IMG/VR virus record: IMGVR_UViG_3300012176_000002
Coordinates: 53,474 to 117,473 of that record
From: a virus
Strand: one strand, 5' to 3'
DNA length: 64,000 nt
Both the position numbers and the translations under genes were made by a program. Position 1 is the first letter of the stretch. Each line of letters begins with the position of its first letter. The notes under the pieces were generated by a model. That model made no database searches, was not told the origin of the DNA, and saw only the letters and a list, made by a program, of their open reading frames with translations. This document shows positions 4,114 to 55,500 of this stretch, one piece after another.

Positions 4114-5678
4114 TATGCTACCTCCATATTTTGATTTTCTATTTCAGAGTAACAGTCGTTACAAAGTTCTTTACCCTCGTATTCGTGGCGCTCCCTGTTC
4201 CTATGCACATTTTCGCATTCTTCACACATAAAATAATCATCCGAATAACAGTCTTCACATATATACCTGTTTTCCCCTTCAATGTAAGCACAGTTTTCGG
4301 CGTAGTAATATTCTCCGCAACCCTCGCAATAAACATAATTCTCAATACAATCACCGCACACATATTTTACACCATTGCTAATACTATAGGATTCATCTTC
4401 TTCGATCCATGTGCCGCAATCATCACATTGTGTATAGTGATTTTCTAAACAATCGTCACATACATAATAGTAGCCTCCAACGTCCGTTACATTTAAAACA
4501 TGTTCTCCGCATCGTTCGCAGTAACTCACACAATCACGGCAATAATATTCCCCGTCTATGATATATGCATCTTCCTCATAGATGGCTTCACCACATTCAT
4601 TACAACAAACAGTGCTATTACCGCAATCATCGCAATATAAATCATTCTCCTCGTCAATTTCTTCCCCACACGTCAGACAATAACATGTTGAACCAATAAT
4701 CATTTGGTCTTTTAATTGAAAATCTTTTTGCAATGAGATATTTGCCTTATACTCTGAATAGATATAATCAGCATAATGCTTCGCAGCATAATGATTCATA
4801 CAATAATCATTTAAACTTTCAGAGTTCTTTTTTATCCACAAATTAGGGATATTATCACATACTGAAAAAATCCGTTGTACTATTTCCCTATATTGCGTTT
4901 TCTTATCTTCATCATTATTAGGATATAGACGGCTTTGCATCAACATAGTGTCCGAATAACAAAACACATTTCTTGTTATTTTTCGTTGATTATAATATTC
5001 GTTTCCACTATAATCATTGTTGATCGTGTAAAAAATTAAACTAACCTCATCGCCCATATATGAAAGTGTTCCTGCCATGTAACAACCATCATCGATATTA
5101 TGACAAGATTTCCAGCCGGTACCGTATGACATATGTAAATAATCGCATGGATGAACTGACAAAACACTTGTCCGCTTAATAACCAACGGATTAAAAGCGT
5201 CAGCCACTTTAGCATATAGCTTGTTATATTCTGGGAGCTTATCCAGTCCTGCCTTTTTGAAAAGGGAATTTAATAGACGGGATACTTTTTGCCCTTCATT
5301 TGTTTTTAATTTTTCTTGTTGCAAGATTTCCTTCATGTCCGTATCAATAAATTGGCTTGTGTAACACCGTAAGATTTCTATACTTCTTTGGATATCATCA
5401 GGAATTACAATATTATTATTTTCTGCATAATTTAGCATATCCTTTATTACATTACGGGCTTCTTTTGGTTCAATATCTCTGATTTCATCAGTGGTCATAA
5501 TTACCGCAAAAGCTTCTTCATTCCAGTTCGGGTGTTTCCTCATTTTTTCGATGAGGGGTTTTTTACTATCAAACCAGCGGTCTATGAGTGAGGAGATTTC
5601 TGTATACTCATATTCTTTTCCGTGTTTGTCCAATACTTCAGTGATAGCATCCTGCAATATCATTTTTGTTTGTTCCAT
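4113..5678 (-). CDS. large protein with C-terminal tandem CxxC zinc-finger repeats
   Basis: Repeated CxxC-x(15-20)-CxxC units over the last ~180 aa; stop overlaps the peptidase start. Confidence 0.8.
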   Translation of the reverse strand: MEQTKMILQDAITEVLDKHGKEYEYTEISSLIDRWFDSKKPLIEKMRKHPNWNEEAFAVIMTTDEIRDIEPKEARNVIKDMLNYAENNNIVIPDDIQRSIEILRCYTSQFIDTDMKEILQQEKLKTNEGQKVSRLLNSLFKKAGLDKLPEYNKLYAKVADAFNPLVIKRTSVLSVHPCDYLHMSYGTGWKSCHNIDDGCYMAGTLSYMGDEVSLIFYTINNDYSGNEYYNQRKITRNVFCYSDTMLMQSRLYPNNDEDKKTQYREIVQRIFSVCDNIPNLWIKKNSESLNDYCMNHYAAKHYADYIYSEYKANISLQKDFQLKDQMIIGSTCYCLTCGEEIDEENDLYCDDCGNSTVCCNECGEAIYEEDAYIIDGEYYCRDCVSYCERCGEHVLNVTDVGGYYYVCDDCLENHYTQCDDCGTWIEEDESYSISNGVKYVCGDCIENYVYCEGCGEYYYAENCAYIEGENRYICEDCYSDDYFMCEECENVHRNRERHEYEGKELCNDCYSEIENQNMEVA

Positions 5679-5753
5679 ATGTCAACCTTTCCTTTCTTTC
5701 CATTTAAAAAAGAAATCCCTGCGGATTTCTAACCTCTATTTAGTAAGTTAACT

Positions 5754-5906
5754 CTACTCATTATTATCTGTACACATTTCTCTAATTGCACAACTACTAC
5801 AAAAGTCATCTATATGCTCACAGCACTCACAACCACAATAGTCTGATTCATTATAGTATTCACACATTCCACCAACATCATGAATACATTCAAACATTTT
5901 GCACAT
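5754..5906 (-). CDS. Cys-rich microprotein (50 aa, 10 Cys)
   Basis: Read manually: MCKMFECIHDVGGMCEYYNESDYCGCECCEHIDDFCSSCAIREMCTDNNE; GGAGG SD. Confidence 0.65.
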   Translation of the reverse strand: MCKMFECIHDVGGMCEYYNESDYCGCECCEHIDDFCSSCAIREMCTDNNE

Positions 5907-5960
5907 AGCATTGCCTCCTTATATTATTTTTGCATTAAACCCATGATAGGTTTTCCTTCT

Positions 5961-6155
5961 TCAATTTATAGTATCTATAAAGTATCCGCTACCATCAGCA
6001 AACGTTAACAAAATACCCGTGTCTGTCATATCTGCCTTAATAATATCCTCTGCGTTTATGTAGTTTTCTGGCATGACATCCCCTTTTCTAAATACAGAAA
6101 ATGTTGCAATTGCAAGTGTTATTGCTAATAAGATACATGTTACCGTCTTTTTCAT
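5961..6155 (-). CDS. small protein with N-terminal hydrophobic segment
   Basis: ORF track; MKKTVTCILLAITLAIATFSVF. Confidence 0.7.
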   Translation of the reverse strand: MKKTVTCILLAITLAIATFSVFRKGDVMPENYINAEDIIKADMTDTGILLTFADGSGYFIDTIN

Positions 6156-6487
6156 TACGCCACCTCCTTAATAAAAGTGATTATTAGTTCATTTAAAAGT
6201 TCTTTTTCTTTTTCCCATGAGATAGTAAAGTTATTACGTATTTTATTAGCTTCTTCCTCATATTTTTGGCATATATCATATGAAGGGGAAATGTTTCCAA
6301 AAGGCCTATAGCCTGTAATAATCGCTATGTCTCCAATCTCATATATATCTGCGTTCCAACCATAAACCCCACAAGTATAGGATACTGGGTTAATATAGTT
6401 TAATAACGATTGTAGATTGCAATATCCTACGCTTATTCTTGTAACATAGCCATTATTAACGACACTTCTAGTTGTTTTATATTTCAT
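6155..6487 (-). CDS. hypothetical protein
   Basis: Start moved to the ATG after GGAGG. Confidence 0.75.
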   Translation of the reverse strand: MKYKTTRSVVNNGYVTRISVGYCNLQSLLNYINPVSYTCGVYGWNADIYEIGDIAIITGYRPFGNISPSYDICQKYEEEANKIRNNFTISWEKEKELLNELIITFIKEVA

Positions 6488-38113: not shown

Positions 38114-38591
38114 TCTGGCTGCATCAGAAGGTGTCAAAAGAACAAAATTTAATGTAAACAAAGATGTAAGTAGACGTACCCATAATGATATCATTTTTGA
38201 TTCTGAGATGGAAATGGAATATTTCAGGGATGTAATTATTCCTTCATTTGAAAGTGGGATAATTATATATTTTGAATTACAAAAACCATATGAATTATTA
38301 CCAAGATTTATACATATGGGAATTACTGTTCAGCCTATTAAATATGTGGCTGATTTTTTTATTCGCTACAAAGATGGGCGTGAAGAAGTAATTGACATTA
38401 AAGGATACCCCGATAGTGTTGCGCTTATAAAAAGAAAAATGTTTTGGTATAACTACCCAACTGTTGCTTATAGGTGGGTCTGTCATAGCGCCATTGATGG
38501 CGGCTGGTGTGATTATGATTATGTAAAAAAGCAACGCTCAATAAGGAAAAAGCAAAAAAAATTAAAAAAATTGGAGGAAGAGAATGGCTGA
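38103..38591 (+). CDS. DUF1064-like PD-(D/E)XK nuclease
   Basis: FDSEME, ELQKPYEL, YVADF, VIDIKG motifs. Confidence 0.75.
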   Translation: MANNLAASEGVKRTKFNVNKDVSRRTHNDIIFDSEMEMEYFRDVIIPSFESGIIIYFELQKPYELLPRFIHMGITVQPIKYVADFFIRYKDGREEVIDIKGYPDSVALIKRKMFWYNYPTVAYRWVCHSAIDGGWCDYDYVKKQRSIRKKQKKLKKLEEENG

Positions 38592-39084
38592 AAAGATTTT
38601 AAACTTAGTTGATTACATCACGTTCATAAAAACAGTGGTGGACTATGTTATTGAATATGACGAAATAAATGGGGATATCTTGTATTCACCAGAATTACTA
38701 TTCCCCGCAATACAATGTTGTACGGCAACTTACTATAATGATTTCGATGAAACCGGGGATGAAAATGCAGATTATGAAGCCTATATTACCGCAAAGCGTC
38801 CCACTACTGCACAATATGAATCCATGATAAAAGCAATCGAGGAAAAAATTGAGTTTGAGAAAAACAAGTTAATCTTTAAAAAACAGGATAGCTTGACGGA
38901 ACTTCTTGGCACAGTTAACGATAAAATTGGGGAAATTGATATGAAGGCGGTTAATAAATCTATCAAACAATTCTTGCCTAAAGTAAAGAATTTTGATCTA
39001 AATAAATTATTCAAAGGAGTTATAGAAGAAAAGACAGATCAAATGCATGATGCAAGAAACGTGCTCTCCATCAAGAAGGAATAA
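38584..39084 (+). CDS. putative tail assembly chaperone
   Basis: Helical protein upstream of the tape measure gene. Confidence 0.5.
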   Translation: MAEKILNLVDYITFIKTVVDYVIEYDEINGDILYSPELLFPAIQCCTATYYNDFDETGDENADYEAYITAKRPTTAQYESMIKAIEEKIEFEKNKLIFKKQDSLTELLGTVNDKIGEIDMKAVNKSIKQFLPKVKNFDLNKLFKGVIEEKTDQMHDARNVLSIKKE

Positions 39085-39087
39085 ATT

Positions 39088-39504
39088 ATGGCAGCATTCA
39101 ATAGTACAGGCGCACTAGAGGCATATATAAAATCAGCGCTCAATATTGCAATGAAGAATGTGTGTGGAATAATGGCAGATAAACTTACACAGCATATTCA
39201 AGCCGATTATTATGACCAATATTCCCCCAGGATATATAAGCGTACATATCAATTTCTGGATAGCGTTGTCTATAATATGTTAGGATCTGGGTATGGGGAA
39301 GTATTTGTCAATACTGGCTCCATGAATTATGAAGACGCCACTGGACAATATGTTGCTGATTTAGCTTCTATGGGGCTTCATGGTAATCCGGGGATACAAA
39401 CATCTGGTAGATTTTTTGATTCATTCTTAGACGAATGTAATAAAGCTTTCATCATAAATCAACTAAAAATAGAATTAGGGAAACAAGGTATCAAAGTAAT
39501 ATAG
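39088..39504 (+). CDS. putative tail completion protein
   Basis: Y..Y.P..YKRTY motif; directly upstream of the tape measure gene. Confidence 0.55.
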   Translation: MAAFNSTGALEAYIKSALNIAMKNVCGIMADKLTQHIQADYYDQYSPRIYKRTYQFLDSVVYNMLGSGYGEVFVNTGSMNYEDATGQYVADLASMGLHGNPGIQTSGRFFDSFLDECNKAFIINQLKIELGKQGIKVI

Positions 39505-39574: not shown

Positions 39575-41305
39575 ATGCCTGATTTAAAAATTTTAGCGGG
39601 AGTAGAACTAGAAAGTAATGCAATTAATACTCTCCGATCACAGTTGTCCGGCATAAAAGATGTAGTCTTGAAGGTTGATAAAATAGAAATTTCAAGTGCC
39701 GCCCTGAATAGTATTCGTTCTCAGGTATCTAGGTCTGGGCCTGAAATGGCTAGTGTTGGAACCGAATTAGGGAACCAAATTAGTGCAGGAATCAGTAGGG
39801 CGACCAGAAATATAAAGATCAATGTAAACAGTTCAGAAATTGATAAGTTAAGATCTGCATTAAGCTTAAAAGGTGTTGATACCCAAACTATTAGTGATAT
39901 TACTAATAGATTATCAAATCTTGATGTTCAAATAAAGAAAATTTCAACATCGTTTAAATCTGCTGACGGAAAAAATCTTTTATCACAAATCAATATATCT
40001 GCAATTAATCAACTAGGAAATGCAGTAGAAGTTATTGATAAATACAACCAAAAGACCGGGGAACTTACTTCCACTAATACAAGAGTATCTACTAGTTTTG
40101 ATCAAGTTGCTAGTGCCGCGGAAAAAGCGGCTGAACGAGAAAGAGTTGCCGCTGAAAAGGCAGCTAATGCAACTGAAAAGGCAGCTGCAAAAAAACAAGC
40201 TAGTATTCAATCTCAGATACAATCCGCAATTGACACTAATTCATTCGCCGCCAGCTTTGCCGGAATAGACGCTCAATTAAAAAGAGTTGGCGAATCGTCT
40301 CAATATTTGGATCAGAACTTCCAAAATACACTAAGAACGCTTGATGGATTTCGAGGCTTTAATTGGGATACAGTTAAAGGAAACCCTGAACAGGCTGCGA
40401 CTGCATGGAATTCATATAATACATCTTTAAAAAATGCCAGAAACACTTTGACTGCGGCCATAAGAGAGCAGTCCACTTTTGTTAATGGGCTAGAGAGAAT
40501 GAGAGCCATCTCTAGTATGGAGGCGTGGCTAAATAAAAATTCTGCCGCCAGTGCTCGATTCGGAGACCAGATAAAAAATATCATTACGCAATTAAAAACT
40601 GCCGATAGAACACAGTTTGATAATCTAAAGAATCAGTTTGCGATAGTTAAAGACCAAGCGGAAGCACTGAACATGACTGGTAGAAGTTTTTCCAGCGAAA
40701 TGAAGAACATGTTCTCAAAATTTTCAAGTTGGTTTAGCGTCGCTACTGTTGTCATGCAGAGTATTCGTGGCATTAAGCAAATGGTATCTGATGTTCATGC
40801 CATTGATACGGCATTAACAGATTTATATAAGGTAACGGATAACACTAGTACCCAATACGCTCAATTTTTTAAAGAAGCTTCAGCGAATGCAAAAGAGTAC
40901 GGAAGTACTATTAAAGATATGATCGCTTCCACCGCTGATTTTGCTAGGTTGGGGTACAGCCTGCAAGAAGCGTCTGTATTGGCGAAATCTGCAAATATTT
41001 ATAAAAACGTCGGGGACATTTCTGTTGAAGAGGGAACCAAGAGCATCATTAGTACATCCGCTGCTTGGCGCGAATATAAAAATGATCCAATGGCAATTGT
41101 CGATAAGTTTAATGAAGTTGGAAATAACTACGCAATTTCTTCAGAACAAATAGGAGAGGCCCTACAACGATCTGCCGCTTCGTTAATGGCAGCAGGAAAT
41201 GATTTAGATCAATCTATAGCAATTATTACAGCTGCAAATACAGTCGTACAAGACGCATCCGTTACCGGAACTGCAGTAAAAACCATGGCAATGCGCTTAA
41301 GGGGT
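39575..41305 (+). CDS. tail tape measure protein, exon 1
   Basis: TP901-type TMP domain motifs (DKFNEVGNNYAIS, L.RSAASL, TMAMRLRG). Confidence 0.88.
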
Positions 41306-42758
41306 AAGTCAAAATTGTGCCCAGTATGTAGAAATACATATACCGTGTGCGCTTAAACACGGCACGACAACTATATATGTTAAAGAGTTAGGGGTAACTC
41401 AAGACGTAGGAAAGATTACAATGCTTTTTTGAAAGGAAATGATAATATAAAACATACAATTGAATATATACAAACTATTTTTAATGAATATAATGTTTTT
41501 GTTTTAGAATACATAAACAGCAAAAATATAATAATTATTGATGAAGATGGCTTCAAATACAAAGCGCAATTATACCTTGTAGAAACTAAAAAAAAGCTTC
41601 CGCATAAATTCAGACAAAATCCATTTGTACTAGAAAACATTAATACTTATCTCAATAAAGTAAACTCTAATCTTCTATTATTAAGCAAAAAGTATATTAA
41701 TTGCAAAACAAAATTAGAATTTATTTGTTCACTTCATTCAAATGAGGGGTCTCAATATATTTCCTTAGACGATTTACTTCAGCGTACTGGTTCGTGCAAA
41801 TACTGTTCATATAAAAAACAAGGTGAATCCCAAAGAATAGATACATCAATAATAATTAATAGATGTATTGAATTAAATTTAACTTATGTTGATAGATATA
41901 ATAAAAATCAAGAAACATGTGTTACATTTATTTGTAACAATCATCCTAAAAAAGGGATTCAGCATATTATATGGTGCCATCTTAAAACTTGTTCCGTTGG
42001 GTGCTCTTTTTGTGCCGGACGAAATAAAACAACCGAAGATTTTCGGGAGGAAATGAAACATATTAGCCCCGACATTCAAATAACTGGTGAATATGGGGGA
42101 TCTGAAAAGCATGTTGAATGTAAATGTTTGATATGTCAACACGTTTGGCATCCAATTGGAAGAAGTTTAAAAAGTGGGCAAGGTTGCCCTGCGTGTTCAA
42201 TGAGTAAGGGCGAAAGATGTATTTTAAAAATTTTGAATAATTATAATATCCCCTTTTTATCTCAGCATACCTTTAAAGATTGTTCTTATATTGGAAAATT
42301 GAAGTTTGATTTTTATTTGCCGGATCATAATATCCTAATAGAATATGATGGGGAACAACATTTTTTCCCTGTTGATTTTGCCAATAAGGGGCAAGAGTGG
42401 GCTATTCAAAAATATGAGCAAATAAAAATGCGTGATAAAATGAAAGACGATTATTGTGCTAATAACAATATAAGATTAATTAGAATTCCATATACAGAAT
42501 TTGATTTAATTGAAAAAATAATAGAAACAGAAATTATATTTTAAAAAGCATTGTAAAATCCCAAGAGACTGCGGGGCATATGTGGTAACATATATGCTGA
42601 AGTTGTCCTCCCTGTTGAAAAACGAGAGTGATATACAGTCCAATCTCGCAATATAACCCCAAATTATTAAAATGCGAGAGTCGGCCAGAAATGACCGACC
42701 GCTATGTATTAACATAGTCAGTAATCATTTACTAATTCATGATGAAAGTCATAGATTG
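41306..42758 (+). mobile_element. group I intron A in the tape measure gene
   Basis: Exon ends GGT and intron ends G; P7 GACTG/CAGTC; P9.0 AATCT/AGATT before the terminal G; splicing restores MRLRG|AKTELEDAG. Confidence 0.9.
41429..42544 (+). CDS. intron-encoded Vsr/DUF559-like homing endonuclease with N-terminal zinc repeats
   Basis: KGE..I...L, FDFYLP, IEYDGEQH, RD..KD.YC..NNIRLIRIPY; true start may be ATA 41447. Confidence 0.82.
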   Translation: MKGNDNIKHTIEYIQTIFNEYNVFVLEYINSKNIIIIDEDGFKYKAQLYLVETKKKLPHKFRQNPFVLENINTYLNKVNSNLLLLSKKYINCKTKLEFICSLHSNEGSQYISLDDLLQRTGSCKYCSYKKQGESQRIDTSIIINRCIELNLTYVDRYNKNQETCVTFICNNHPKKGIQHIIWCHLKTCSVGCSFCAGRNKTTEDFREEMKHISPDIQITGEYGGSEKHVECKCLICQHVWHPIGRSLKSGQGCPACSMSKGERCILKILNNYNIPFLSQHTFKDCSYIGKLKFDFYLPDHNILIEYDGEQHFFPVDFANKGQEWAIQKYEQIKMRDKMKDDYCANNNIRLIRIPYTEFDLIEKIIETEIIF

Positions 42759-43295
42759 GCAAAAACAGAATTAGAAGATGCCGGACTAGATACAGAAGGC
42801 ATGGCAACATCAGTTGCATCATTAAGAAAAGAACTAGAAGCACTTGCTGGCGTTGACATTATGCTCGACGATGACACGTTCAAAGAAAGTTTTGATATCT
42901 TTGATGGTATTGCTGAAAAGTGGGGCGAGCTAAAAGACATTCAAAAAGCAACGATTACAGAATTAGTCGCTGGAAAACGCCAGGGCAACGTTTTCTCATC
43001 GCTCATGGAAAATTGGGACGTTGCTAAGGAAACTCTTCTTACCTCACAAAATTCTGCCGGAAGTGCAATGAAGGAAAACGAAAAGTTCCTTGAAAGCATG
43101 GACGGTAAACTTGCTCAGTTAAAAGCAAATTTTGAAACACTTTCAACTGGTATTTTTAACTCTGATTTCCTCAAAGGAGCTATTGATGCCGGTTCTGCAT
43201 TTTTAGACGTCTTATCAAAAATAATAGAAGCATTAGGAGTATTCGGAACCATTGGCGCAGGTGCCGGTATTGCGATGCTAGTCAAGAGCTTAGGT
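42759..43295 (+). CDS. tail tape measure protein, exon 2 (179 aa)
   Basis: AKTELEDAG...ELVAGKRQGN...SAGSAMKENEKFLES; ends KSLG. Confidence 0.85.
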
Positions 43296-43779
43296 AGACC
43301 AAAACAGGTCTTGCTTATTTCCGACAGTAAGCGAGCCTACCATAAAGAAGAATATGCTATAACGGCAGCATAAACAACTTTGTGGCATTGCGGCTCTATA
43401 AAAAATAAAGAGGATTAATTGCTGGGATACCAGAATGCCAATCAAGCTACAACGTGGATTTAAATATCGGGCGTGAATGCGGCGAAAGCAGAAAAAATTG
43501 ATTGGATGGCAAAGGGTGAAATAAAAGCGTGATTCTATCGCGTCCCTTAAAGAGCCACTAACAACGGTACGATCAGCAGCCAACCCTACAGCGTTTAGTA
43601 ATACTATATAATCCGGTAGTAAAAGTAGCGCAAGCTATGCCGGGGTAAAAGTATGAATCGTGGGGAAAGTTCAACGAGCACCATTCCTCAGAGTGTATCA
43701 CCGCCTTAGAGTGATATGCTTTTAATGTATGTTCTAAGTGAAACAGTTCAAATGAATCAATAATATAGTTCATAACGGG

Positions 43780-43821
43780 AACAACCACCTCAAACGGCAA
43801 AGTTTAGGATGGTTGTTTTTT
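43780..43821 (+). terminator. terminator-like hairpin inside intron B (may also be a P9 element)
   Basis: AACAACCA...TGGTTGTT followed by a T-run. Confidence 0.55.
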
Positions 43822-43847
43822 GAGTGATTGTATTTTTTATTTCCTAT

Positions 43848-43876
43848 ATTTTAGCACTATGGGAATAGAAAGTCAA
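43848..43876 (-). promoter_or_regulatory. sigma-A-like promoter, antisense into the intron B ribozyme core
   Basis: TTGACT-N17-TAAAAT on the minus strand. Confidence 0.65.
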
Positions 43877-43927
43877 TAGTAGTATTACTAAAATCATGAA
43901 AAATCATAAGAAGGAGAAAGAGAGATA

Positions 43928-44146
43928 ATGGCTGAATTAAAAGTAGTATTCAACAATGTAGTATTCCATGACGAGGAAGGAAACGAAATTGTTTTTAAAC
44001 CAGTTAGAAAGGAAGATGGAAGTTATAGTTTAAAGGGGGATCTGGAAGAGGAAAAGGAAACCCTAGAAAGTCTTGCTTTGAGGATTTGGGAATTGGAATG
44101 TATGGTGTGTGAGCAGCAGTTGGAAATTAGTGAATTAATAAGATAA
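43928..44146 (+). CDS. intron B cargo ORF 1 (72 aa, acidic)
   Basis: AAGGAG SD, ATG start, hairpin downstream. Confidence 0.7.
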   Translation: MAELKVVFNNVVFHDEEGNEIVFKPVRKEDGSYSLKGDLEEEKETLESLALRIWELECMVCEQQLEISELIR

Positions 44147-44284
44147 CGAAAAAGAATAACAAGTCCCCTCTCGTTAAAAGAAGGGGTTTTGCTGTTACTT
44201 AAATCTTATGTATGTCTTTTTTTGTAACAGGGGCAAGTCAATAGTAGTATCAATTAAATTCATAAAAAAAAGGAGAAAGAGATA

Positions 44285-44800
44285 ATGGAAAATAAACAAA
44301 AGTTGGGGTGCAAAAAAGTGATACTGGGGGAATTCATAGAAGAACTTTCAGAAATCATACTTGATTATGCATGTCAGAAAAAAATGACAATATCCAATAT
44401 TGAAGAGGTCTTGGCGATAGTAATAGGTTATATGGAAGATAACGCAACTATGACAGATGATACTCATGCCGTTGATACAATTCTAACAGATTTATGTTCT
44501 GATATCCACGATATTTATGCGGCTTTAGCAGAATTATATAAGGTGACTGATAATACTAGTACCCAATACGCCCAGTTTTTAAAAGAAGCCCCTGCCAACG
44601 CCAAGGAATGCGGAAGCACTATTAAAGACTATATTTCTTTTACCGCAGACTTTGCCAAGCTGAGATATAGCTTGCAAGAGTCATCCATATTGGCGAAATT
44701 AGTAAATTTTTATAAAAACACCGGAGACATTTCCGTCGAAGAGGGAGTCACTAGCACAAAATTTTACCATGAAGAAGGTAAAGAACCAATAAAAATTTAG
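44285..44800 (+). CDS. intron B cargo ORF 2: chimera containing a diverged copy of TMP exon 1 sequence
   Basis: LYKVTDNTSTQYAQF.KEA.ANAKE.GSTIKD...GDISVEEG is shared with exon 1. Confidence 0.75.
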   Translation: MENKQKLGCKKVILGEFIEELSEIILDYACQKKMTISNIEEVLAIVIGYMEDNATMTDDTHAVDTILTDLCSDIHDIYAALAELYKVTDNTSTQYAQFLKEAPANAKECGSTIKDYISFTADFAKLRYSLQESSILAKLVNFYKNTGDISVEEGVTSTKFYHEEGKEPIKI

Positions 44801-44911
44801 TCCCAAAAGTATGAGGGATGGTATAAACTAGAGAACCGCATAATATTTTTAAAGCACAATATTAAATAAGGTGTCCCGCTGCCTATATCCCAAAGGTGGA
44901 GCATTAAAGTT

Positions 44912-44937
44912 AAAAGAGACCGAAATGGTCTCTTTTT
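44912..44937. terminator. bidirectional terminator between convergent cargo genes
   Basis: AAAAGAGACC-GAAAT-GGTCTCTTTT perfect 10-bp stem. Confidence 0.8.
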
Positions 44938-44995
44938 AATTAGAACAAAAAATCAGCAGATTTTTACGGAGGATGCAAGTTGCATCTTCCGTCAA

Positions 44996-45475
44996 TTACC
45001 ACGTATGACCACAACTCTTGCACTTAAAACTCTTATTAATTTTCCTACTAAAAATCCCCAATCCTGCTATTGAAGCTCCGCGTTCCATTGCGCCAATCTT
45101 TTGAACGACATTGCTTCCACAGGTAGGGCATTTTGGGGTTGGGTCGATTGGTTGGGTGAATGCCGGGGAGGTAGGGGTTTGTGTTTCAGGAAGGGGTGAA
45201 GCAAGGGGTGGGCTCAAGTATTCCCATCTAACACCATCGTGTGTGAATTTCGCCTGTTCTCCTCTATGACATCTTTCACAAAATCGTGCTATACACCTAT
45301 ACAAATCTTCCATCATGCTGTATTCCTCATTTCCACATTGTGGGCAAATATAGGATTCGGACAATAAGTTCTTCCACCTACTACTATGATCCTCCCCGCA
45401 TTGAGGACAAAGATCTGTTCCGAAATTTATAAATGAACTACATTTAACGCACTTGATGAAGCCATAAGTGATCAT
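44996..45475 (-). CDS. intron B cargo ORF 3: multi-zinc-ribbon protein (159 aa), antisense
   Basis: Multiple CxxC pairs, C-terminal KCPTCGS...FKCKSCGHTW; GGAGG SD; start moved to MITYG. Confidence 0.8.
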   Translation of the reverse strand: MITYGFIKCVKCSSFINFGTDLCPQCGEDHSSRWKNLLSESYICPQCGNEEYSMMEDLYRCIARFCERCHRGEQAKFTHDGVRWEYLSPPLASPLPETQTPTSPAFTQPIDPTPKCPTCGSNVVQKIGAMERGASIAGLGIFSRKINKSFKCKSCGHTW

Positions 45476-45504
45476 TGATTTTTCCTCCATTTTGTAATAA
45501 GACA

Positions 45505-45533
45505 ATTGTAACATAAATAAAAGAATATTCCAA
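45505..45533 (-). promoter_or_regulatory. sigma-A-like promoter for the zinc-ribbon cargo gene
   Basis: TTGGAA-N17-TACAAT with extended TG. Confidence 0.65.
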
Positions 45534-45539
45534 TACTTG

Positions 45540-48500
45540 TCGATAAAATCTGTCGGAGATATAGCAAGTACTACTAGTCTTATTTCAAATTTAGGGCAAA
45601 ATGTTCAAGCAATCACAATGGCGATGCATGGATTTAGCGCGGCACAGCAAGTTTCAATGATGACTTCCGCTGGACTTGATAGCGCTATTCAAAATCAAGT
45701 TTTATCATTACAAGGATTAAGCCCCGCACAAGTTCATGCTGCGATGTCCAATGCAACTATGGCGACCGCAACAACTACCAATGCCGCAGCTCAAGGATTA
45801 TTGACAAAAGCACTCGGAGCATTGAAGGCTGCCGTTATTGCACATCCAATATTAGCCTTTGCAGCAGCAGTCGGAATTGCATTTGTCGCAGTAGATCTAT
45901 TAACCGAATCACTGTCAGAGGCGCAGGAAAAAGCCGCCGAATCTGCCGAAGCATATGAGAAGATAAAAACAGAAATTCAGCAGATGAACGATGAATTGGA
46001 GACTGCTCGTGACAGAATTAATGAACTAAATGCTAGAGAAAACCTTTCTCTCGTTGAAGAAGCGGAACTAGAAAAATTAAAGGTACAGAACGAATACCTT
46101 GAAAAGCAAATTTCGCTAAAGGAAGCACTGTCGGGCTTTAGCCAAAAACAGGCTATTAGTGACGCGGTAAATGCAGCTGGTAAAACTTCTGAGAAAGCTG
46201 TTGCTTATGAAGGACAGTATTATCGAGCAGACGGTACGACTGGTGACAAGTATGACGACACCTATGGTAGATATGGACTAAATCGCCTAGACTACGTTCA
46301 GTCAAATTTAAATGCAATAAAGACCTACGAGCAAATTATTAATGATCTGCAAAAACAGCAAAATGCGTTAGATAAAGAATCTGAGACTTTCCAAGATGAT
46401 TTTAATGACTTGGATAAACAAATCAACGCACATTTATCCAAAATTGATGAATGGAATGCTGAAGTAGCTTCTGTTATGGGGGAACTTGGTGAAGAGTTAA
46501 GCACTACATTGGAAGCATATCTGAATGATATTTCTATGAGCGATGAAGCTACTCAGATTGTCGAGCAGTACAACTCTCTCATGGATCAGATCCTAGGCGC
46601 TACTAACAGCGCAGTAGATGAAGCCAGCAACAAAACAGATATTATTGACAAGATTTTTGATCAAAAAAAATGGAGCGACGCCCTTTCTGATATGCAATAT
46701 GCATATGGGGCAGGAATCAGTCTTGATGATATATTAGGCGACTTCTTCACAATAAATAAGGACATCTCTACTGTTCTTGATGAAGCAGGGATAAATAAAG
46801 AAGAACTGAGCAAATATCTAAAATCCCTCCTTGCGCCTGATGAAATTGATTTCAATGAGTTAAGAAGTCAGCTCACTACCACTCTTGATCTTGAAAACTC
46901 TTCTCTTGCTAAAAATAAATGGCTTGACTCCAAATCTGACATGCAGATAGAAATTCTATATGGCATTTCTAAAGACAGGGATATATCTACATTGTCTATG
47001 GAAGAACTCGACGCAGAAATTGAGAAGATCCAAAATCAGAAAATATTCATATCCGTTTCTGATGCAGCTGAACAAATAGCGGCAGTTGGCGAAGAGCAAG
47101 AACTTGTCAACAAGATCCTTAGTGAAGGTACTTCTATTGCCGCTGAAGATTATCAGAAGCTTATTGAATATTCGAAAGAATATGAGTCCTGCCTGACGTA
47201 TGAGGGGGACAGATATACTCTAAATCGCAAAGCGCTCAAAGACCTTACAAAAGAGCGTGAGAAAACCCTTAAAACGCAGATTAAAGAAGCTAAAAATAAT
47301 AAGTATCTTGATTATCATAATTTGTCTAAGGAGTTATATGCTCTCACTCGCGACTATTCGAAATATGACGCCAGCAAAGACCGTTCAATCAAAACCACAC
47401 TAGCTCAGTTAAGTAGCCTAGAAGCAGAAATCAATCAATACAGACTTCTAGAGCAACAATTATTGACCGCTTCAAACGCATTTGATAAGTACAAAGAATC
47501 AAAGAATGCGGCTGATTATGGTGATAATTACAATACGTCTAATGACGCCAGAGGATCTTTAAAAGAAGGTTTTGAAACAGGAAAGGTAGGAACGGTAGAG
47601 TTTGAAAGCGCCGTTGACTTACTCGTTCCCGAAGCTGAAATTGATAAGGGCATTTCTGGGATTAAAAAGTACTATGACAAAACAATCAAAAAATATTTCA
47701 CTGATGACAATGACGGTGTTGTTAATTTTATAAACGACGCACTTTCCAAGGGACTGTTCACTGGTTCTCTTAGTGACTTCTTAGTGACTGATGGGAAGGT
47801 ACTAGATGATTTCTGCGAACAGTTAAATATAACCAAAGAAGTTGCGCTTGCCATATTTGGTGAATTGGAAACCTATGGATACGGGCAGAATTTTGATTGG
47901 TTTGATGAACTGTTTAGGGGCTCTGAAGATTCTTATAACGCACTTGAATCCTTGGAAGTTCAGTTACTAAAAACCAAGGCAGAAATGATTAAAAGTGGTG
48001 ATTGGGGCTTTGACGGTGAAAGTAATAGTGCCAAGACCAAAGAAGTCATTGACCGACTTGAAGAAATTAAACAAAAAAAGAAGGAAGTAGCCCTTACTGC
48101 CGCTGATGGTATTATTAACTATGAACAGGACAAGGCGAATCTAGAGAAATTATATCAGGATTATGAAGCTTTACTCGTTCAGATAAACCAATCAGAAGAT
48201 GAAGAAGTAAAAATAAAGCTACAAGCAGAAGCAGATGAATTATATGCACAAATAGAACATTTAGAAAGCCAGCTTACAGAGCCAACCGAAATGAATATTA
48301 CCATTGCGGAAGAAACTTTAACATCTGAACTGGCTAAGTTCAAGAGAGCATCCGAAGATCCTCAATACGCTGCTGCAATTAATATTACTACCGACGAAGC
48401 CCAAGGGAAAGTCGATGAATTTACCCAGAAACTTGAAGCGATAAATCAAATAAAATATGACCAACAAGAATCTGTACTTTATGGGGTGGGGCAAACGGTT

Positions 48501-51500
48501 GATAAAATCAAGTCAAAGATTGAATCAACAAAGGATTTAAACGTCACCACGACTACGGCAATGACTAGGCTGGAGGCGGTCAATAATTATGTAACCGCTC
48601 TTCGTAACAAGATTTCGCTAGGGGCTAGTTTTAAGGTAACGACAACAACTTCCGATCCTGCGAGTGTCAATGGGACGGCACATGCTAGAGGAACTGTTCC
48701 GAAGATTAAATCCGCAAGTTTTGGAAATGGATATTTAGGAAAAGCTTACTCATCTGGCAATTGGGGAATTGGTCGTGACGAAATTTCTCTGACGGGTGAA
48801 CTTGGGCAAGAGATGGTAGTCAGAGACGGCAGATTCTTTACTGTTGGAGACAATGGCGCAGAAATGGTCGGTCTTAAGAAGGGCGATATAGTATTTAATC
48901 ACCTTCAGACTCGTGAACTTTTGTCGAAGGGTTACGTTACCGGACGTGGAAGGGCTTACGCTGAAGGTTCTGCTTATGTTTCCGGTGGTTCTGGAATCAA
49001 TGTAACTGGCGGGACAAGTAGCAAATCTAGTAGTAAGTCCAGCAGTAAATCCAGTAGTAAAACTAATTCATCCGACGATTCAGACGCGTCTAAGAGTTTG
49101 GAAGACTGGATTGAACGTTTTATTGACGCTTTTCAATACGGGGCGAATGCACTTCAAAGACTTGCGAATGATGTCTACCAGAGATACACCGATCAAAACC
49201 CTGTTATCAATCAAATGGTCTCTGACATACATAATTTTGTTCAACTTGAACAGCAAATGTATGATAGATATATGCAACAAGCCAACTCTCTCGGACTGTC
49301 TTCTGATTACGTCCAAAAGATCCAAAACGGCGCAATTGATATTAGTACCATTACTGATGATAATCTAAAAGAAAAAATTTCTGATTATAAGCAGTGGTAT
49401 GACAAAGCGCAAGGTGTGAAAGAAACTATTGCTGAATTAAAAGTTCAGATCAGAGATCTAAATAATCAAAAACTAAGCAACATTGTGGATGATTTTGAAC
49501 AACTAATTGGTCTCAGCAAAAGCTTGATTTCAGTACAGGAATCATACATTAAGTTAATTGAGGAGTCAGGGAAACGTGTTGTTGAAAATGATTATACGGT
49601 TCTTATTGGAGAGGAAGCCAATACCCTAAGATATCTAAATGCACAGTTCGCAACGCTAAACGCTGAATATAACTCCCTTGTAGCAGCCGGTGCTCTTGAT
49701 ATAGATGACTTCATCAAGTGGAAAACGGTTCTTACTGATATCAAAGAGGAAATCTACCAATCGCAAATAGCATTAGAGCAATATAAGAATTCGATCCGCG
49801 AAGTTCGGTGGGAACCGTTCTTATCTGGCTTGGACGGTCTTGATAATGCAAACGATGCTCTGGACGATATGATGACTCTTTTGGGCAATAGTGGACTGTT
49901 TGATGAAACCAACATTTCATCCATCGGGAAGACCAAATTAGGCTTGCTAAGTCAACAGCTTGTGAACAACAAAAAGATGGCAGCGCAGTATAAAGAAGCC
50001 ATTAACACTCTTGCCAAAGAACTCAAGAATGGAACAATCACCCAGAAGGAATACGATGAAGAATTACTGAAATATCAAAAACTGCAACGTGAAGCTGCCA
50101 TTGCTACCAAAGAAAGCAAAGATGCAATAATCAGTTTAATAAAAGATGGAATTGACAAAGAAACTGAAGCATTCAACAAACTCATCGCAGCTAAAAAAGA
50201 GGCCCTGTCTCAAGACAAGAAAAATGATGAGTATGCTAAAAAGGTAAATGATAAGCAAAAACAAATCAATGCAATCCAAGCTCAACTTGCAGGATTAGAG
50301 GGCGATAACTCCGCAGAGGCAATTCAAAAGAGAAAGAAATTAAATTCTCAATTGAGTACTCTGAATGAGGAATTGCAGGAAATTCGTAAAGACAGGGAAA
50401 TTGAAACTTTAGAGCAAACTTATGATGACGCACTTGAATTATTTGAAGAATATCAAGAAAAGATAAAAGATGAGTTAGACTATAATCTTGATTTGAGAGA
50501 TAAAGAAATTGCTAATATGCTCATCACGACAAAATCCAGCTATGATGAAATATTCGGTTATTTGCAGGATCTATCAGATAATTACAACGTGGCTCTGACG
50601 GACAGTATTACTAATCCATGGAAATCTGGCACAGCAGCCGCTCAAAATTATTATGATGCGGTAAATAAGATTTCCGGTGTATCATCTGGAATAGATACCG
50701 CTCCGGTTAGCACGACATCCTCTAATGAGTCAAGCATTCGGCAGCTATACTCTTCTCTTCTGGGGAGAGACGCCGACAAGACTGGACTGGAACATTTTCT
50801 AAGTATGATGGATTCAGGGACGACGCTGGATCAAGTAAAGTCGGATATTTTGAATTCAAGTGAATACAAAATCAAAAGTCTTTATAAAAGCGTTCTTGGG
50901 CGCGATGCTGATGCTGTAGGGTTACAACATTGGACGAATGCCCTGAACAGCGGCGCTTCTTTATCTGAGATTGAATCAGCAATGCGTATGTCCGATGAGT
51001 TCTGGAAGAGGTCGAGCGAATTTGTGACGGGACTATATAAGGATGTTCTAGGTCGTAGTCCTGATTCTGCGGGACTGAATACTTGGCTACAAGCTATGCA
51101 GAAAGGAATGTCTAAAAAGGAAGTTGAAAGGTCATTCTACAATTCTGCGGAATTCCAGAATAAATATTCCGGTAAGTCCAATCAAGATTATATAACTGCT
51201 TTATACAGCAAGATCCTAAACAGATCCCCTGATTCTGGCGGGTTGTCAACATACTTATCTGCACTGAATAGTGGCAAACCTCGTTCTTATGTTGTTGATG
51301 CGTTACTATATTCGGATGAGTTCAAGAAGCTAAAGGGTTATGCGAAAGGAACGATTCGAGTTCCAAAAACCGGTGTTTATAAAACCCAAGAAGAAGGATT
51401 GGAAGCTATAATTGGTAGTGGGGGACTTGTCACTCCGCTAAATAAGGGAGACACTGTATTTACAAACCCTCAAACGATGCAGCTATGGGATATGTCGAAA

Positions 51501-51722
51501 GATCCCTCTTCTTTTATTCTGAAGAATTTATCTAATGCTCTGCCAAATTATTCAGACTTGAATTCTCAACCTGCTTTAAGTGTGCAGATAGATAAACTGA
51601 TAGGAAGTGTTGAGTATAGGAATAAAGATGATTTGCCAGAACTTAAAAGATTTTTAGAAATGGCTGCGGATCATACTATAGATAGGATCAAGGGGCAAGC
51701 AAGAAATCTCGGTAAGTTATAA
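45540..51722 (+). CDS. tail tape measure protein, exon 3 (spliced product about 2816 aa), with four DUF4214-like repeats near the C-terminus
   Basis: Long helical ORF with no SD at its start; LY..LLGR.PD..GL..W repeats. Confidence 0.85.
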   Translation, partial: SIKSVGDIASTTSLISNLGQNVQAITMAMHGFSAAQQVSMMTSAGLDSAIQNQVLSLQGLSPAQVHAAMSNATMATATTTNAAAQGLLTKALGALKAAVIAHPILAFAAAVGIAFVAVDLLTESLSEAQEKAAESAEAYEKIKTEIQQMNDELETARDRINELNARENLSLVEEAELEKLKVQNEYLEKQISLKEALSGFSQKQAISDAVNAAGKTSEKAVAYEGQYYRADGTTGDKYDDTYGRYGLNRLDYVQSNLNAIKTYEQIINDLQKQQNALDKESETFQDDFNDLDKQINAHLSKIDEWNAEVASVMGELGEELSTTLEAYLNDISMSDEATQIVEQYNSLMDQILGATNSAVDEASNKTDIIDKIFDQKKWSDALSDMQYAYGAGISLDDILGDFFTINKDISTVLDEAGINKEELSKYLKSLLAPDEIDFNELRSQLTTTLDLENSSLAKNKWLDSKSDMQIEILYGISKDRDISTLSMEELDAEIEKIQNQKIFISVSDAAEQIAAVGEEQELVNKILSEGTSIAAEDYQKLIEYSKEYESCLTYEGDRYTLNRKALKDLTKEREKTLKTQIKEAKNNKYLDYHNLSKELYALTRDYSKYDASKDRSIKTTLAQLSSLEAEINQYRLLEQQLLTASNAFDKYKESKNAADYGDNYNTSNDARGSLKEGFETGKVGTVEFESAVDLLVPEAEIDKGISGIKKYYDKTIKKYFTDDNDGVVNFINDALSKGLFTGSLSDFLVTDGKVLDDFCEQLNITKEVALAIFGELETYGYGQNFDWFDELFRGSEDSYNALESLEVQLLKTKAEMIKSGDWGFDGESNSAKTKEVIDRLEEIKQKKKEVALTAADGIINYEQDKANLEKLYQDYEALLVQINQSEDEEVKIKLQAEADELYAQIEHLESQLTEPTEMNITIAEETLTSELAKFKRASEDPQYAAAINITTDEAQGKVDEFTQKLEAINQIKYDQQESVLYGVGQTVDKIKSKIESTKDLNVTTTTAMTRLEAVNNYVTALRNKISLGASFKVTTTTSDPASVNGTAHARGTVPKIKSASFGNGYLGKAYSSGNWGIGRDEISLTGELGQEMVVRDGRFFTVGDNGAEMVGLKKGDIVFNHLQTRELLSKGYVTGRGRAYAEGSAYVSGGSGINVTGGTSSKSSSKSSSKSSSKTNSSDDSDASKSLEDWIERFIDAFQYGANALQRLANDVYQRYTDQNPVINQMVSDIHNFVQLEQQMYDRYMQQANSLGLSSDYVQKIQNGAIDISTITDDNLKEKISDYKQWYDKAQGVKETIAELKVQIRDLNNQKLSNIVDDFEQLIGLSKSLISVQESYIKLIEESGKRVVENDYTVLIGEEANTLRYLNAQFATLNAEYNSLVAAGALDIDDFIKWKTVLTDIKEEIYQSQIALEQYKNSIREVRWEPFLSGLDGLDNANDALDDMMTLLGNSGLFDETNISSIGKTKLGLLSQQLVNNKKMAAQYKEAINTLAKELKNGTITQKEYDEELLKYQKLQREAAIATKESKDAIISLIKDGIDKETEAFNKLIAAKKEALSQDKKNDEYAKKVNDKQKQINAIQAQLAGLEGDNSAEAIQKRKKLNSQLSTLNEELQEIRKDREIETLEQTYDDALELFEEYQEKIKDELDYNLDLRDKEIANMLITTKSSYDEIFGYLQDLSDNYNVALTDSITNPWKSGTAAAQNYYDAVNKISGVSSGIDTAPVSTTSSNESSIRQLYSSLLGRDADKTGLEHFLSMMDSGTTLDQVKSDILNSSEYKIKSLYKSVLGRDADAVGLQHWTNALNSGASLSEIESAMRMSDEFWKRSSEFVTGLYKDVLGRSPDSAGLNTWLQAMQKGMSKKEVERSFYNSAEFQNKYSGKSNQDYITALYSKILNRSPDSGGLSTYLSALNSGKPRSYVVDALLYSDEFKKLKGYAKGTIRVPKTGVYKTQEEGLEAIIGSGGLVTPLNKGDTVFTNPQTMQLWDMSKDPSSFILKNLSNALPNYSDLNSQPALSVQIDKLIGSVEYRNKDDLPELKRFLEMAADHTIDRIKGQARNLGKL

Positions 51723-52562: not shown

Positions 52563-55500
52563 TGTTTATTTTCAAGAAAGAACAAGCACGGGCAAAAGAG
52601 ATATATATTTCCAAACCTAACAATGGTATGCTTGGCCCCTTAGATGGAATCACATCTGCTAAATTCACTCCAAAATTCAACGATATATGGGAACTGGACG
52701 TTTCTGTTGATAAGTATATAGATGGAGTTTTATCTAGTAAATATGATGCTATTCTGCAATATATGGAACTGTATGTTCCTGATATTGGATGGTTTAGAAT
52801 AACAGAAGCTCCGAAAGAAACAATGGACAAGCATGGTCATACATATAAGACATTCAAGGCTCAGGGGTATGAAATTCAACTGCAAGACGTTGATGTTGTC
52901 AATTTCTATGTTAACACGGGAGATGAACTATCATATGAATTTTTTGACGAGAATCTAAACCCGATGGGTGTTCCAATGAGAAACATCCAACTTTATATCC
53001 AAAATGCGTCTGACGATCCTGAGTCTGATAATTATTTCGGGTATGGGATTTTGAATCTCTTAGAAAAATATTATCTCAGAAAGTGGAAATTTGGTGAGGT
53101 AGATATTGAATTACGGAGTCTTAGGGGACGGGTAATTTCAATAGAAAGTCAAAATTTGTATGCAACACTAACTCAGGATATTTCCAAAGCATTTGATTGT
53201 ATTTTTGAATTTGATCGGGAGAATTTCATTATTAACGTTCGCCCGTTTTATAATATAGGCAAGACCCTTAACATCCAAGCATCATACAGAAATCTGTTGA
53301 ATAGCATGACGATTAGTGCATATAGTGACCCCTCATATACCCGTTTTAGGGTTGCTGGTGGAAACGAACAAACAAGCATAATGTACGTTAATTTCGGGTC
53401 TGATTATATAGACAATCTTTCGTATTTTATGAAGGAACCATATTTTAAAAAAGAAGTAGTTGATAAATATAATCAGTTTGTTAGCGTCAGAGAAAGTAAA
53501 CGGGAAGAATACGCAAACTTATATAAAGACTATAGTTTAATCAGCAGTGAGATTTCAGAAATTGATAATAGGGTTCCAATTGATGAGGTAAAAATTGCAT
53601 GGGGGAGATATTCCGTAGAGGAATTGAATACAGAACTCGAAAATTTCAAAGCAATACTTAGTTATTTGGAAAAAACAGGACAGAATGTTGAAGGGGCAAA
53701 TAAGTACCAAACATATTTGTGTATTAAGGATATTATCATTCCAGATATTGAGGCGAATATCCGTGCTAAAAATACGGGGGACGTTGCGGTTGCCGTTGAT
53801 TATAAGACCAATTGGGAATTATATGGGATTATAGAATTAGAATCAAAGAAGGTGGCCTATGAAGATGTTATTAAAGTATACGAACACACTGGGCATAACG
53901 TTCCATGGACACCTGAAGGCTCTACCTCTACATCCGAAGCCGCTCATAATCTGCAATATAATCAATATTTAGAATACGTTGAATATGTAGCCAAAATAAA
54001 ACTAAAACTTACTGCTCTGTATGATAAAAAGAATACCCTCACAGAAAATTTAAAACGAATTGAAGATGATTTGTCCAAAATCAGAGCTTCCGTCTCTATT
54101 GAAAATGTCCAATTTGGGTTTTCACAAAAGGAACTGGAAGATATTCGTTCACTCTATATAGACACTGATTTTACAGATAGTTCCATTGAAGTTCAGGATG
54201 TAGGGATTATTGATGACGTAATTGATTATTCTTGGGATTTGTATGAATCTGCGAAAAAAGAATTGGAATATAGATCCCGCCCACAATTCACGGTCACTAC
54301 TGAAGCCGAAAACCTATTTAGAATTGAATCATTTAAGAGACAAGCCGATACACTGGAAATAGGTGATTTTATATACCTTGATCTCGGAGATAGCAACTAC
54401 AGCAATATTATAAAACAAAGGATTATATCATTTACTGTTGAACTGGTCAACATGGACAACACCTCTCTCTCACTATCATTTTCTAACTTAGCATGTACTG
54501 CATATGGAAAAGCAGATGACTATAGATTTTTCTTCGAAAATAAATCTGGATCAGTTAGTAAAAATTCAATTACTCAAAACAACACATCAACAATTCAATC
54601 CATATCAGCATCCGTAGCACTTTCGGTCATCCAAGGTTATCTCGGTGGCGGTAATTCTATCTTCCCAAACGGGTTAAGCGTACAAGACACTCAGAGGCTC
54701 TTAGATTCACTTTCAGGACTAATTGATGGTAATATATCTCTTGATGAATTAAAGGCCAAATTAGCCAAAATAGACGTGTTAGAAGCAGACAATGCATTCA
54801 TTAAATACCTTGAATCATCATTATTGGTGTCTGATAAGGGAGTTTTTAAAGAATTAAATGCAACCATTGGCAATATAGAGACGTTGCTATCCGGCACTAT
54901 CGGTGCAGGGAATGCCCAGTTTATTAATTTAACAGTAGATAATACAAAAATGACTGATGCTTTTATTAAAAACCTTATTGCATCAAGAATTAGCGTAGCT
55001 GATTTAAATGCTCATACTATGAGTGGTCAGACTATAAATATTATTTCAACAAAAACCGGAGATCCTGCTATATCTTTTATGAATGGGACGCAACAGTTTT
55101 TTGACAGTAAAGGGGTAGTTCGTGTCCAAATTGGACAAGATGCGTCGGGGAATTTTAATTTCATTATTCGTGGAGAAGATGGTACTACTACCCTATTTGA
55201 CGAGAACGGCATCACCAAAAATGCTATTCCTGATGGTTTAATCATAAATGATATGATCGAGTCTGGAACAATAGAGAAAAATAAATTAGGGTTCCCGACA
55301 ATAGAGGCGAATAAATTTGGGGGTGTTGATATCACGCAAGTTTACAATGGCGAAGATGGCTTATGGGGAGTACAATATGATGAGTTTAAAACCTCCACGG
55401 AAACCAAAATAAAAGAAATAGCTTCGATGGCAGACATTATTGAACTTTATGCAGATAATCAGGTGTTTATTGAACAAGATGGGATAATTACCCCCTCTGC

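Follow-up and report, generated by a model that had tools for sequence, protein, structure and literature searches.

A selected chimeric gene carrying a diverged tape-measure segment, in a putative group I intron of the tape-measure gene of an SPbeta-like gut phage

Introduction

Phage tail operons are known to harbour morons, or accessory cassettes, a familiar example being the HK97 gene 15 type, and phage group I introns in which an ORF follows the ribozyme core are known as well, as in the T4 nrdD/sunY type. Gene-fragment scars are likewise familiar, since partial copies of structural genes beside inserted cassettes are usually recombination debris. The tape-measure protein (TMP) is itself a target of dedicated proteins, namely Ltp of TP-J34 and Sie2009, which are superinfection-exclusion proteins directed at the TMP of incoming phages (PMC3952083), and the STAND receptor Avs18, for which a 2026 study describes binding to a conserved helical TMP segment of ~130 residues that is both necessary and sufficient for activation (PMC13581612). 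Host receptors for a conserved TMP segment have therefore only just been described.

Here, we describe ORF171, a small gene found in the window, by which we mean the whole 64,000-nt stretch of viral DNA that was analysed (IMG/VR record IMGVR_UViG_3300012176_000002, positions 53,474 to 117,473). Like morons, ORF171 is small, has its own ribosome-binding site and a terminator-like hairpin, is patchily distributed in close relatives and lies in a late structural operon beside exchangeable cassettes; unlike them, it sits inside a probable group I intron rather than between genes, and its product is a chimera, one part of which is a copy, kept by selection, of a piece of the host gene. The intron in turn resembles those of the T4 nrdD/sunY type and of Staphylococcus phages in having its core 5' and its coding cargo 3', with U at the 5' and G at the 3' splice site, but differs in that the cargo holds no homing endonuclease and forms a multi-gene island on two strands (ORF72, ORF171 and a reverse zinc-ribbon ORF) with terminator-like hairpins and without an Rfam match. 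The segment sensed by Avs18, described as conserved, alpha-helical, ~100-130 residues long and recognisable on its own, may or may not be the one copied in ORF171, whose ~95 residues begin where TMP is most conserved (PF10145 / PHROG 4211); a host receptor is at work there and a phage-encoded copy here, and the hosts there are Proteobacteria (PMC13581612). ORF171 shares with Ltp and Sie2009 the property of being a phage-encoded accessory protein linked to TMP; those two are lipoproteins of the membrane and have no sequence relationship to TMP (PMC3952083), whereas ORF171 is TMP-derived and has neither a signal peptide nor a membrane segment. Morons, intron ORFs and gene-fragment scars are each already known, and what is new is their combination, that is, an old, selected and remodelled copy of a conserved segment of the host gene, joined to an independent small domain and forming one cassette of an intron island with several genes.

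A tape-measure segment joined to a small phage protein

A preliminary description of the locus had presented this ORF as intron cargo that contains a diverged copy of exon 1 of its own host gene, with a small internal duplication and an intact frame behind an unrelated ~60-aa N-terminus. The homology is confirmed by BLASTP against the exon-1 ORF (ORF171 residues 70-171 against 403-508, 62% identity, E 2e-41) and by a direct DNA repeat of 259 nt (40787-41045 and 44498-44756, 76% ungapped identity), and the peptides quoted for it are exact. In all, residues ~59-157 of ORF171 are a diverged copy of TMP exon-1 residues ~392-490, at 62-70% amino-acid and 76% nucleotide identity (Table 1). The duplication is also there, in the form of two 38-nt stretches, 44458-44495 (79%) and 44500-44537 (74%), which both match 40789-40826 and lie 42 nt apart, and the frame is open throughout, with a Shine-Dalgarno sequence upstream and a hairpin plus T-run downstream. 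These are the only two TMP-like places, exon 1 and ORF171, in the whole 119.8-kb phage record. At the profile level, the tape-measure family PHROG 4211 matches in part (residues 69-156 against profile positions 608-694 of 2625, E 5.5e-11), and Pfam returns no match to PF10145 PhageMin_Tail at E<=0.1; with 171 aa, this partial match and nine family-invariant residues changed, ORF171 falls short of a full tape-measure domain. Pfam and PADLOC searches of ORF171 otherwise gave nothing meaningful, and neither Pfam nor PHROG matched a nuclease domain (LAGLIDADG, GIY-YIG, HNH, His-Cys, PD-(D/E)xK or Vsr-like).

Table 1. Positions of ORF171, its parts and its surroundings, numbered from the first letter of the window.
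Feature	Position	Strand	Basis or remark
Parent-type segment in TMP exon 1, residues 405-490; start of conserved PhageMin_Tail region	40787..41045	+	
TMP exon 2	42759..43295	+	UUG precedes; boundaries read from sequence
Putative group I intron 2 of TMP, 2,244 nt	43296..45539	+	Ribozyme core ~43296-43775, then cargo island
Repeated 48-nt upstream block, repeat D3	43870..43917 (before ORF72), 44235..44282 (before ORF171)	+	
ORF72, neighbouring cargo cassette	43928..44146	+	Present in L014/L015, absent in L009
Shine-Dalgarno AAGGAG, 9 nt 5' of ORF171 ATG	44270..44275	+	Read from sequence
ORF171, chimeric accessory gene, 171 aa	44285..44800	+	ORF list; same or near-same ORF on L003-L009, L029-L031; purifying selection
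N-terminal domain of ORF171, residues 1-57	44285..44455	+	phmmer relatives P0003-P0007, alignment A8, AF2 pLDDT 74.5
42-nt tandem duplication, start of TMP-like block	44458..44537	+	Repeat family D2
TMP-like block of ORF171, residues ~59-157, four predicted helices	44458..44756	+	BLASTP, DNA repeat, PHROG 4211, AF2
Unique 14-aa tail of ORF171	44757..44797	+	Allele L031: 3 other residues instead
Hairpin plus T-run, 3' of ORF171	44915..44937	+	Read from sequence
Reverse multi-zinc-ribbon ORF	44996..45514	-	Pfam zinc-ribbon matches
TMP exon 3, 2,061-codon frame	45540..51722	+	Without Shine-Dalgarno upstream

The N-terminus is unrelated to TMP, as first described, in that the first ~57 residues match neither TMP nor anything else in the 119.8-kb record, but it is no orphan, belonging instead to a family of stand-alone phage early proteins. 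A phmmer search of 1.84 billion proteins matched residues 6-62 to five clusters of small proteins (P0003-P0007; 55, 57, 63, 94 and 146 aa) at 45-54% identity and E 3.8e-6 to 4.6e-4. The family alignment (A8), which ORF171 fits, has ten invariant columns and a core of ~50 residues ending in a DNAxL motif; the TMP-like block begins a few residues past this motif, at the point where the stand-alone homologues (55-63 aa) end, and ORF171 is thus a complete small protein extended in frame. It is, in other words, a clean domain fusion between a member of a small phage early-protein family and a TMP fragment. The early assignment is suggested by gene context where this is visible: one relative (L026) comes first in the direction opposite to a cI-like repressor, and another (L017) is preceded by two Tad2-like genes and followed by a gene for a DNA methylase. 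Two family members, P0005 and P0006, carry other, unrelated C-terminal extensions, neither of which is a copy of another gene on its own contig. A MAFFT misalignment had raised the idea that the N-terminal domain is itself a very old TMP copy, and this was rejected, having no BLAST support.

Structure prediction with AF2 gives a short beta-alpha-alpha-beta unit for the N-terminal domain and four helices (pLDDT 73-85) for the TMP-like block. Comparisons of the models were uninformative: Foldseek with the ORF171 model (pLDDT 64) found nothing in the PDB at E<=0.001, VIA-align of the N-domain model against the PDB found generic helical hairpins only (best Z 5.0), the same model had nothing below E 0.65 in BFVD, and an ESM Atlas feature search reached a best score of 0.76. 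A complex prediction for ORF171 with residues 362-515 of P0008, the TMP stretch that follows the copied segment, with both chains supplied as alignments, scored 0.00, which has no bearing either way.

Origin and remodelling of the copy

Among the 120 listed of 955 relatives of the N-terminal part of TMP (TMP-N), those closest to the ORF171 block are the exon-1 sequences of its own clade (67-70% aa), the next being at 45-49%, and a closer donor was found neither among these listed relatives nor in 5.8 billion proteins. The copy branches just outside the exon 1 of its own clade. When the differences were polarised with 52 distinct outgroup TMPs, 15 changes fell on the ORF171 branch and five on the exon-1 stem; because ORF171 keeps the ancestral state at these five sites, the copy must have split off before the exon-1 alleles diverged. 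Nine of the 15 changes on the ORF171 branch are at sites at least 96% conserved in the 52 TMPs (M70L, V74I, D78Y, T82A, S119F, R125K, G127R, A140V and V146T), while the block still keeps most of the family-conserved residues. Together with the purifying selection described below, these nine changes at TMP-invariant sites indicate that the block is constrained, though not as a tape measure.

Recombinational capture, which the preliminary description had set against a function as decoy or dominant-negative inhibitor, is upheld as the origin of ORF171 by the position of the fusion at the natural C-terminus of the small-protein family (phmmer, alignment A8). Capture concerns the origin of the gene and function its present state, and the two are not alternatives. 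It had further been argued that recombination between the two copies would delete exon 2 and both ribozyme cores and truncate TMP, so that divergence between them may be selected. The geometry is as described, with both copies direct and 3,711 nt apart; their longest identical run is 17 nt, a maximum which the dS of ~1.2-1.5 simply gives.

Selection on ORF171

Four ORF171 alleles were available, from ~10 metagenome or viral contigs of one phage clade, and all four have intact frames. Their shared 462 nt contain 28 variable sites, distributed 3/3/22 over codon positions 1/2/3, with 21 synonymous and seven amino-acid-changing. Between the window and L031 there are 13 nucleotide differences, every one of them synonymous and at the third position, and no amino-acid change. 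Pairwise counts of synonymous to nonsynonymous differences (7:1, 13:8 and 10:7) depart from neutrality, with p from 3e-5 to 5e-4, and omega among the alleles is ~0.13. Both halves of the protein are constrained, with omega of 0.04-0.21 in the N-domain and 0-0.13 in the TMP-like part.

The same picture emerges over a longer time span from the dN/dS comparison between the two copies that the preliminary description had put forward. Against its exon-1 paralogue, ORF171 has a dS of 0.8-1.6 (beyond estimation for some pairs), a dN of 0.15-0.19 and an omega of ~0.1-0.2, which is purifying, and the differences fall 15/10/36 on codon positions 1/2/3. No minus-strand ORF of at least 40 aa overlaps ORF171, so none is there to explain the codon-position bias. 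Synonymous sites are near saturation, yet 62-70% of residues and an open frame have been kept, which is not how a copy drifts neutrally. ORF171 is not a neutral relic and has been under long-term purifying selection; the frameshifts in orthologous copies that would have marked a relic are seen in none of the four alleles, and the substitutions are overwhelmingly synonymous. Where partial copies of structural genes are usually debris, this one has long been kept.

The tape-measure gene and its introns

The TMP gene, with a product of 2,816 aa, comprises three exons, and the tail chaperones lie at 38584-39504. Exon 1 (39575-41305) ends in ...MRLRG with GGU directly before the break, and exons 1 and 2 are contiguous in one frame in the distant phage MT837120. 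Intron 1, which separates them in the window, carries a homing-endonuclease ORF recognised by HNH/homing endonuclease PHROGs (PHROG 559, E 9e-57).

At the 5' splice site of intron 2, as read from the sequence, UAGGU (43291-95) pairs with GCCUA (43335-39) through a terminal U.G, and AGCGA just 5' of this guide pairs at four of five positions with UCGAU (45540-44). The intron ends in a terminal G (G45539), and its removal joins ...VKSLG to SIKSVG in frame. GGU precedes the break in six loci (the window, L010, L011, L021, L023 and L025), followed by a hairpin that covaries (AGACC/GGUCU, GAAC/GUUC, AAGGA/UCCUU and AGGGA/UCCCU), and UUG stands at the in-frame 3' site in four (the window, L015, L021 and L025), as it does at intron 1 of the window (42756-58). 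Homology outside this group of phages points the same way, in that 43410-43528 shares 76-78% identity with intron DNA from Staphylococcus phages: in Metroid the match comes directly behind a short tail tube CDS (114 codons), with a gene for an HNH endonuclease downstream of it, and in PMBT8 it lies beside three Rfam group I (RF00028) matches. RF00028 itself did not match intron 2 even at E<=10, P/Q/R/S-like motifs being visible by eye; six homologous introns aligned with MAFFT are too diverged for covariation analysis; and no intron-less homologue spanning the junction of exons 2 and 3 was found. We regard 43296-45539 as a group I intron, an assignment that is well supported but not proven, and the description of ORF171 as intron cargo of the TMP gene holds on the splice-site pairing, the terminal G, the in-frame join and the Staphylococcus homology.

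In essentially all of the 120 listed of 955 TMP-N relatives, homology stops at the same glycine and gives way to read-through junk, and the split TMP recurs in more than 100 protein clusters of related phages. The phages of the window clade are SPbeta-like gut phages with Yom/Yon Pfam families.

An island of exchangeable cassettes

In most related SPbeta-like phages, intron 2 contains the reverse zinc-ribbon ORF only, to which the lineage of the window has added forward cassettes. A homologous reverse ORF lies between TMP-N and the C-terminal part of TMP (TMP-C) in L010, L015, L021-L025 and L031, and is probably the ancestral cargo of the intron. Its protein, with several zinc ribbons, measures ~155-172 aa in the window, L021 (12654-13118), L023 (12398-12877) and L025 (12370-12846), with a shorter homologue of 74 aa in L010 (7356-7580). 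It is the sole conserved cargo of intron 2 among the SPbeta-like loci fetched, runs antisense to the intron, lacks a nuclease motif and might represent a new homing or maintenance factor.

ORF171 is present in the window and in L003-L009 and L029-L031, and is absent from L014/L015, whose exon 3 is 90-94% identical in protein and which keep ORF72 and the reverse ORF; ORF171 is therefore dispensable. In its place, L015 carries a Bro-N/KilAC antirepressor (5343-6164) and small ORFs. No second TMP-like copy was found in the islands of L010, L011, L014, L015 and L021-L025, and no ORF171 relative in GTDB genome contigs. Given this patchy presence, its own Shine-Dalgarno sequence and its terminator-like hairpin, ORF171 is an exchangeable accessory cassette. 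The two copies of the 48-nt block upstream of ORF72 and ORF171 agree fully over the first 16 nt, and this exact 16-mer occurs at these two places only in the window; the block is probably the 5' boundary or leader of a cassette, and may be a phage-specific promoter. No sigma-70-type site above shuffle expectation was found as a promoter of ORF171; the phage has its own RNA polymerase.

Other genes gathered at this site appear to be of the conflict type. Directly after ORF171, L009 has a 168-aa ORF (5220-5726) with a weak match to the C-terminal, toxin-binding part of DarG (PADLOC E 4.5e-5); its product may act as an antitoxin mimic that counters DarTG defence. In L031, 2.2 perfect 48-nt tandem repeats lie directly upstream of a 160-aa ToxN-like ORF (together 1071-1713; Pfam E 0.002, below threshold), which on the face of the sequence is how a type III toxin-antitoxin pair (ToxIN/AbiQ-like) is laid out, here in a tail-gene intron. 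L031 also bears a deletion whose end coincides with the final codon of the TMP block: residues 1-154 of ORF171 are unchanged, and three residues stand in place of the 17 that follow ...VEEG, namely the final three aligned with TMP and the unique tail. After this deletion, only the 3' end of the L009-type 168-aa ORF is left. A DUF3800 protein occupies the same intron site in MT835469 (L011 9000-9743, minus strand).

Possible function and alternative explanations

ORF171 is very probably a functional protein-coding gene. The best explanation overall, which we place just on the likely side, is that it is a translated and selected accessory gene, a chimera and an intron cassette that acts by mimicry of a TMP segment. 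The fusion itself is in frame and joins a complete small phage protein domain (residues 1-57) to ~95 residues copied from where the conserved helical region begins, in a TMP of the same phage clade before the present exon-1 alleles diverged, and the resulting gene is one of the exchangeable cassettes that make up the cargo island of the TMP intron. Its product would mimic the TMP segment and so occupy the partner that normally recognises it. This partner is most likely (a) a sensor of host immunity that detects the conserved TMP segment, in which case ORF171 would be its decoy or inhibitor, or (b) the TMP of a related rival phage or the machinery that assembles its tail, with which ORF171 would interfere; under (b), the divergence of exon 1 (81-89% against ~95% nt) would spare the phage's own TMP from poisoning. 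Long retention under selection and remodelling at residues that are fixed in real TMPs, combined with fusion to an early-protein domain, is the signature expected of a molecular mimic. That TMP mimicry is the function, taken by itself, we judge somewhat short of an even chance. By analogy with Avs18, an altered phage-made copy could blunt a sensor of that type, and a specific version of this idea, which we consider unlikely, would make ORF171 a decoy of an immune-sensed TMP segment with its invariant residues altered, fused to a small oligomerising domain, that occupies an Avs18-like receptor without triggering it and travels with other conflict genes. If true, this would make ORF171 the first decoy of a structural protein directed at bacterial pattern-recognition immunity.

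The nine changes at TMP-invariant residues are just as compatible with a loss of TMP-like binding, the helices then being a mere scaffold for the N-domain. This leads to a functional gene that mimics nothing, in which the N-domain has an early regulatory or anti-host activity and the TMP helices are only a stabilising or oligomerising extension kept for folding. The N-domain family does stand alone or with other unrelated C-terminal extensions (P0005, P0006), and the island neighbours are unrelated accessory genes; we nonetheless find this reading rather unlikely, as constraint on the TMP-like part is no weaker than on the N-domain, most of the family-conserved TMP residues have been kept, and L031, having lost the tail, retains the TMP block to its last codon.

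On another view, an inserted cassette brought along a piece of TMP that is in frame by chance, and the apparent constraint is a sampling artefact. The L031 allele speaks for this in so far as a deletion is seen to stop where the TMP block does. Such a neutral origin of the pattern is nevertheless highly improbable in the face of near-saturated synonymous sites with most residues kept, intact alleles throughout, 22 of the 28 polymorphic sites at third positions, 13 synonymous changes to none in one comparison, and no overlapping minus-strand ORF that would explain the bias. ORF171 might instead serve its own phage as an auxiliary factor for the 2,816-aa TMP, for example by capping or chaperoning the conserved domain. 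Its derivation from TMP itself would suit such a role, and so would its location inside the TMP transcription unit, which would have it made late and with TMP if translated from the pre-mRNA or the excised intron. This, too, is improbable, because the close relatives with a 90-94% identical exon 3 manage without ORF171 and more than 100 related split TMP genes have the intron with the reverse zinc-ribbon ORF alone. The island appears to gather conflict-type accessory genes, and a probable group I intron conserved in more than 100 TMP genes of SPbeta-like gut phages serves them as an insertion platform.

Further observations on the tape-measure locus

The TMP gene is a hot spot for introns, whose positions differ between close relatives. 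The endonuclease intron of the window (41306-42758) is inserted between MRLRG and AKTELE, and in L004 (3700-5780) and L009 (2160-3775) it is found ~95 codons further on, after DIQRA. L015 (1754-3325) has ORF-less introns at both of these sites and another after exon-1 residue 516, and the TMP gene of MT835469 has two endonuclease introns. In Staphylococcus phage PMBT8 (L013 1388-2613), three tandem Rfam group I matches are followed by a fourth, intron-like stretch homologous to the core of intron 2 of the window, all within 1.3 kb. A tyrosine integrase gene lies directly upstream of the TMP gene in the SPbeta-like relatives L021 (8884-9930), L023 (8890-9933) and L025 (8839-9882), an odd place for it, and none is there in the window. 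Exon 1 of the window is 81-89% identical in nucleotides to its counterparts in L004, L009 and L015, against 95-99% for exon 2, the ribozyme core, ORF171 and exon 3, and this high divergence of exon 1 appears to reflect mosaic replacement of the N-terminal part of TMP.
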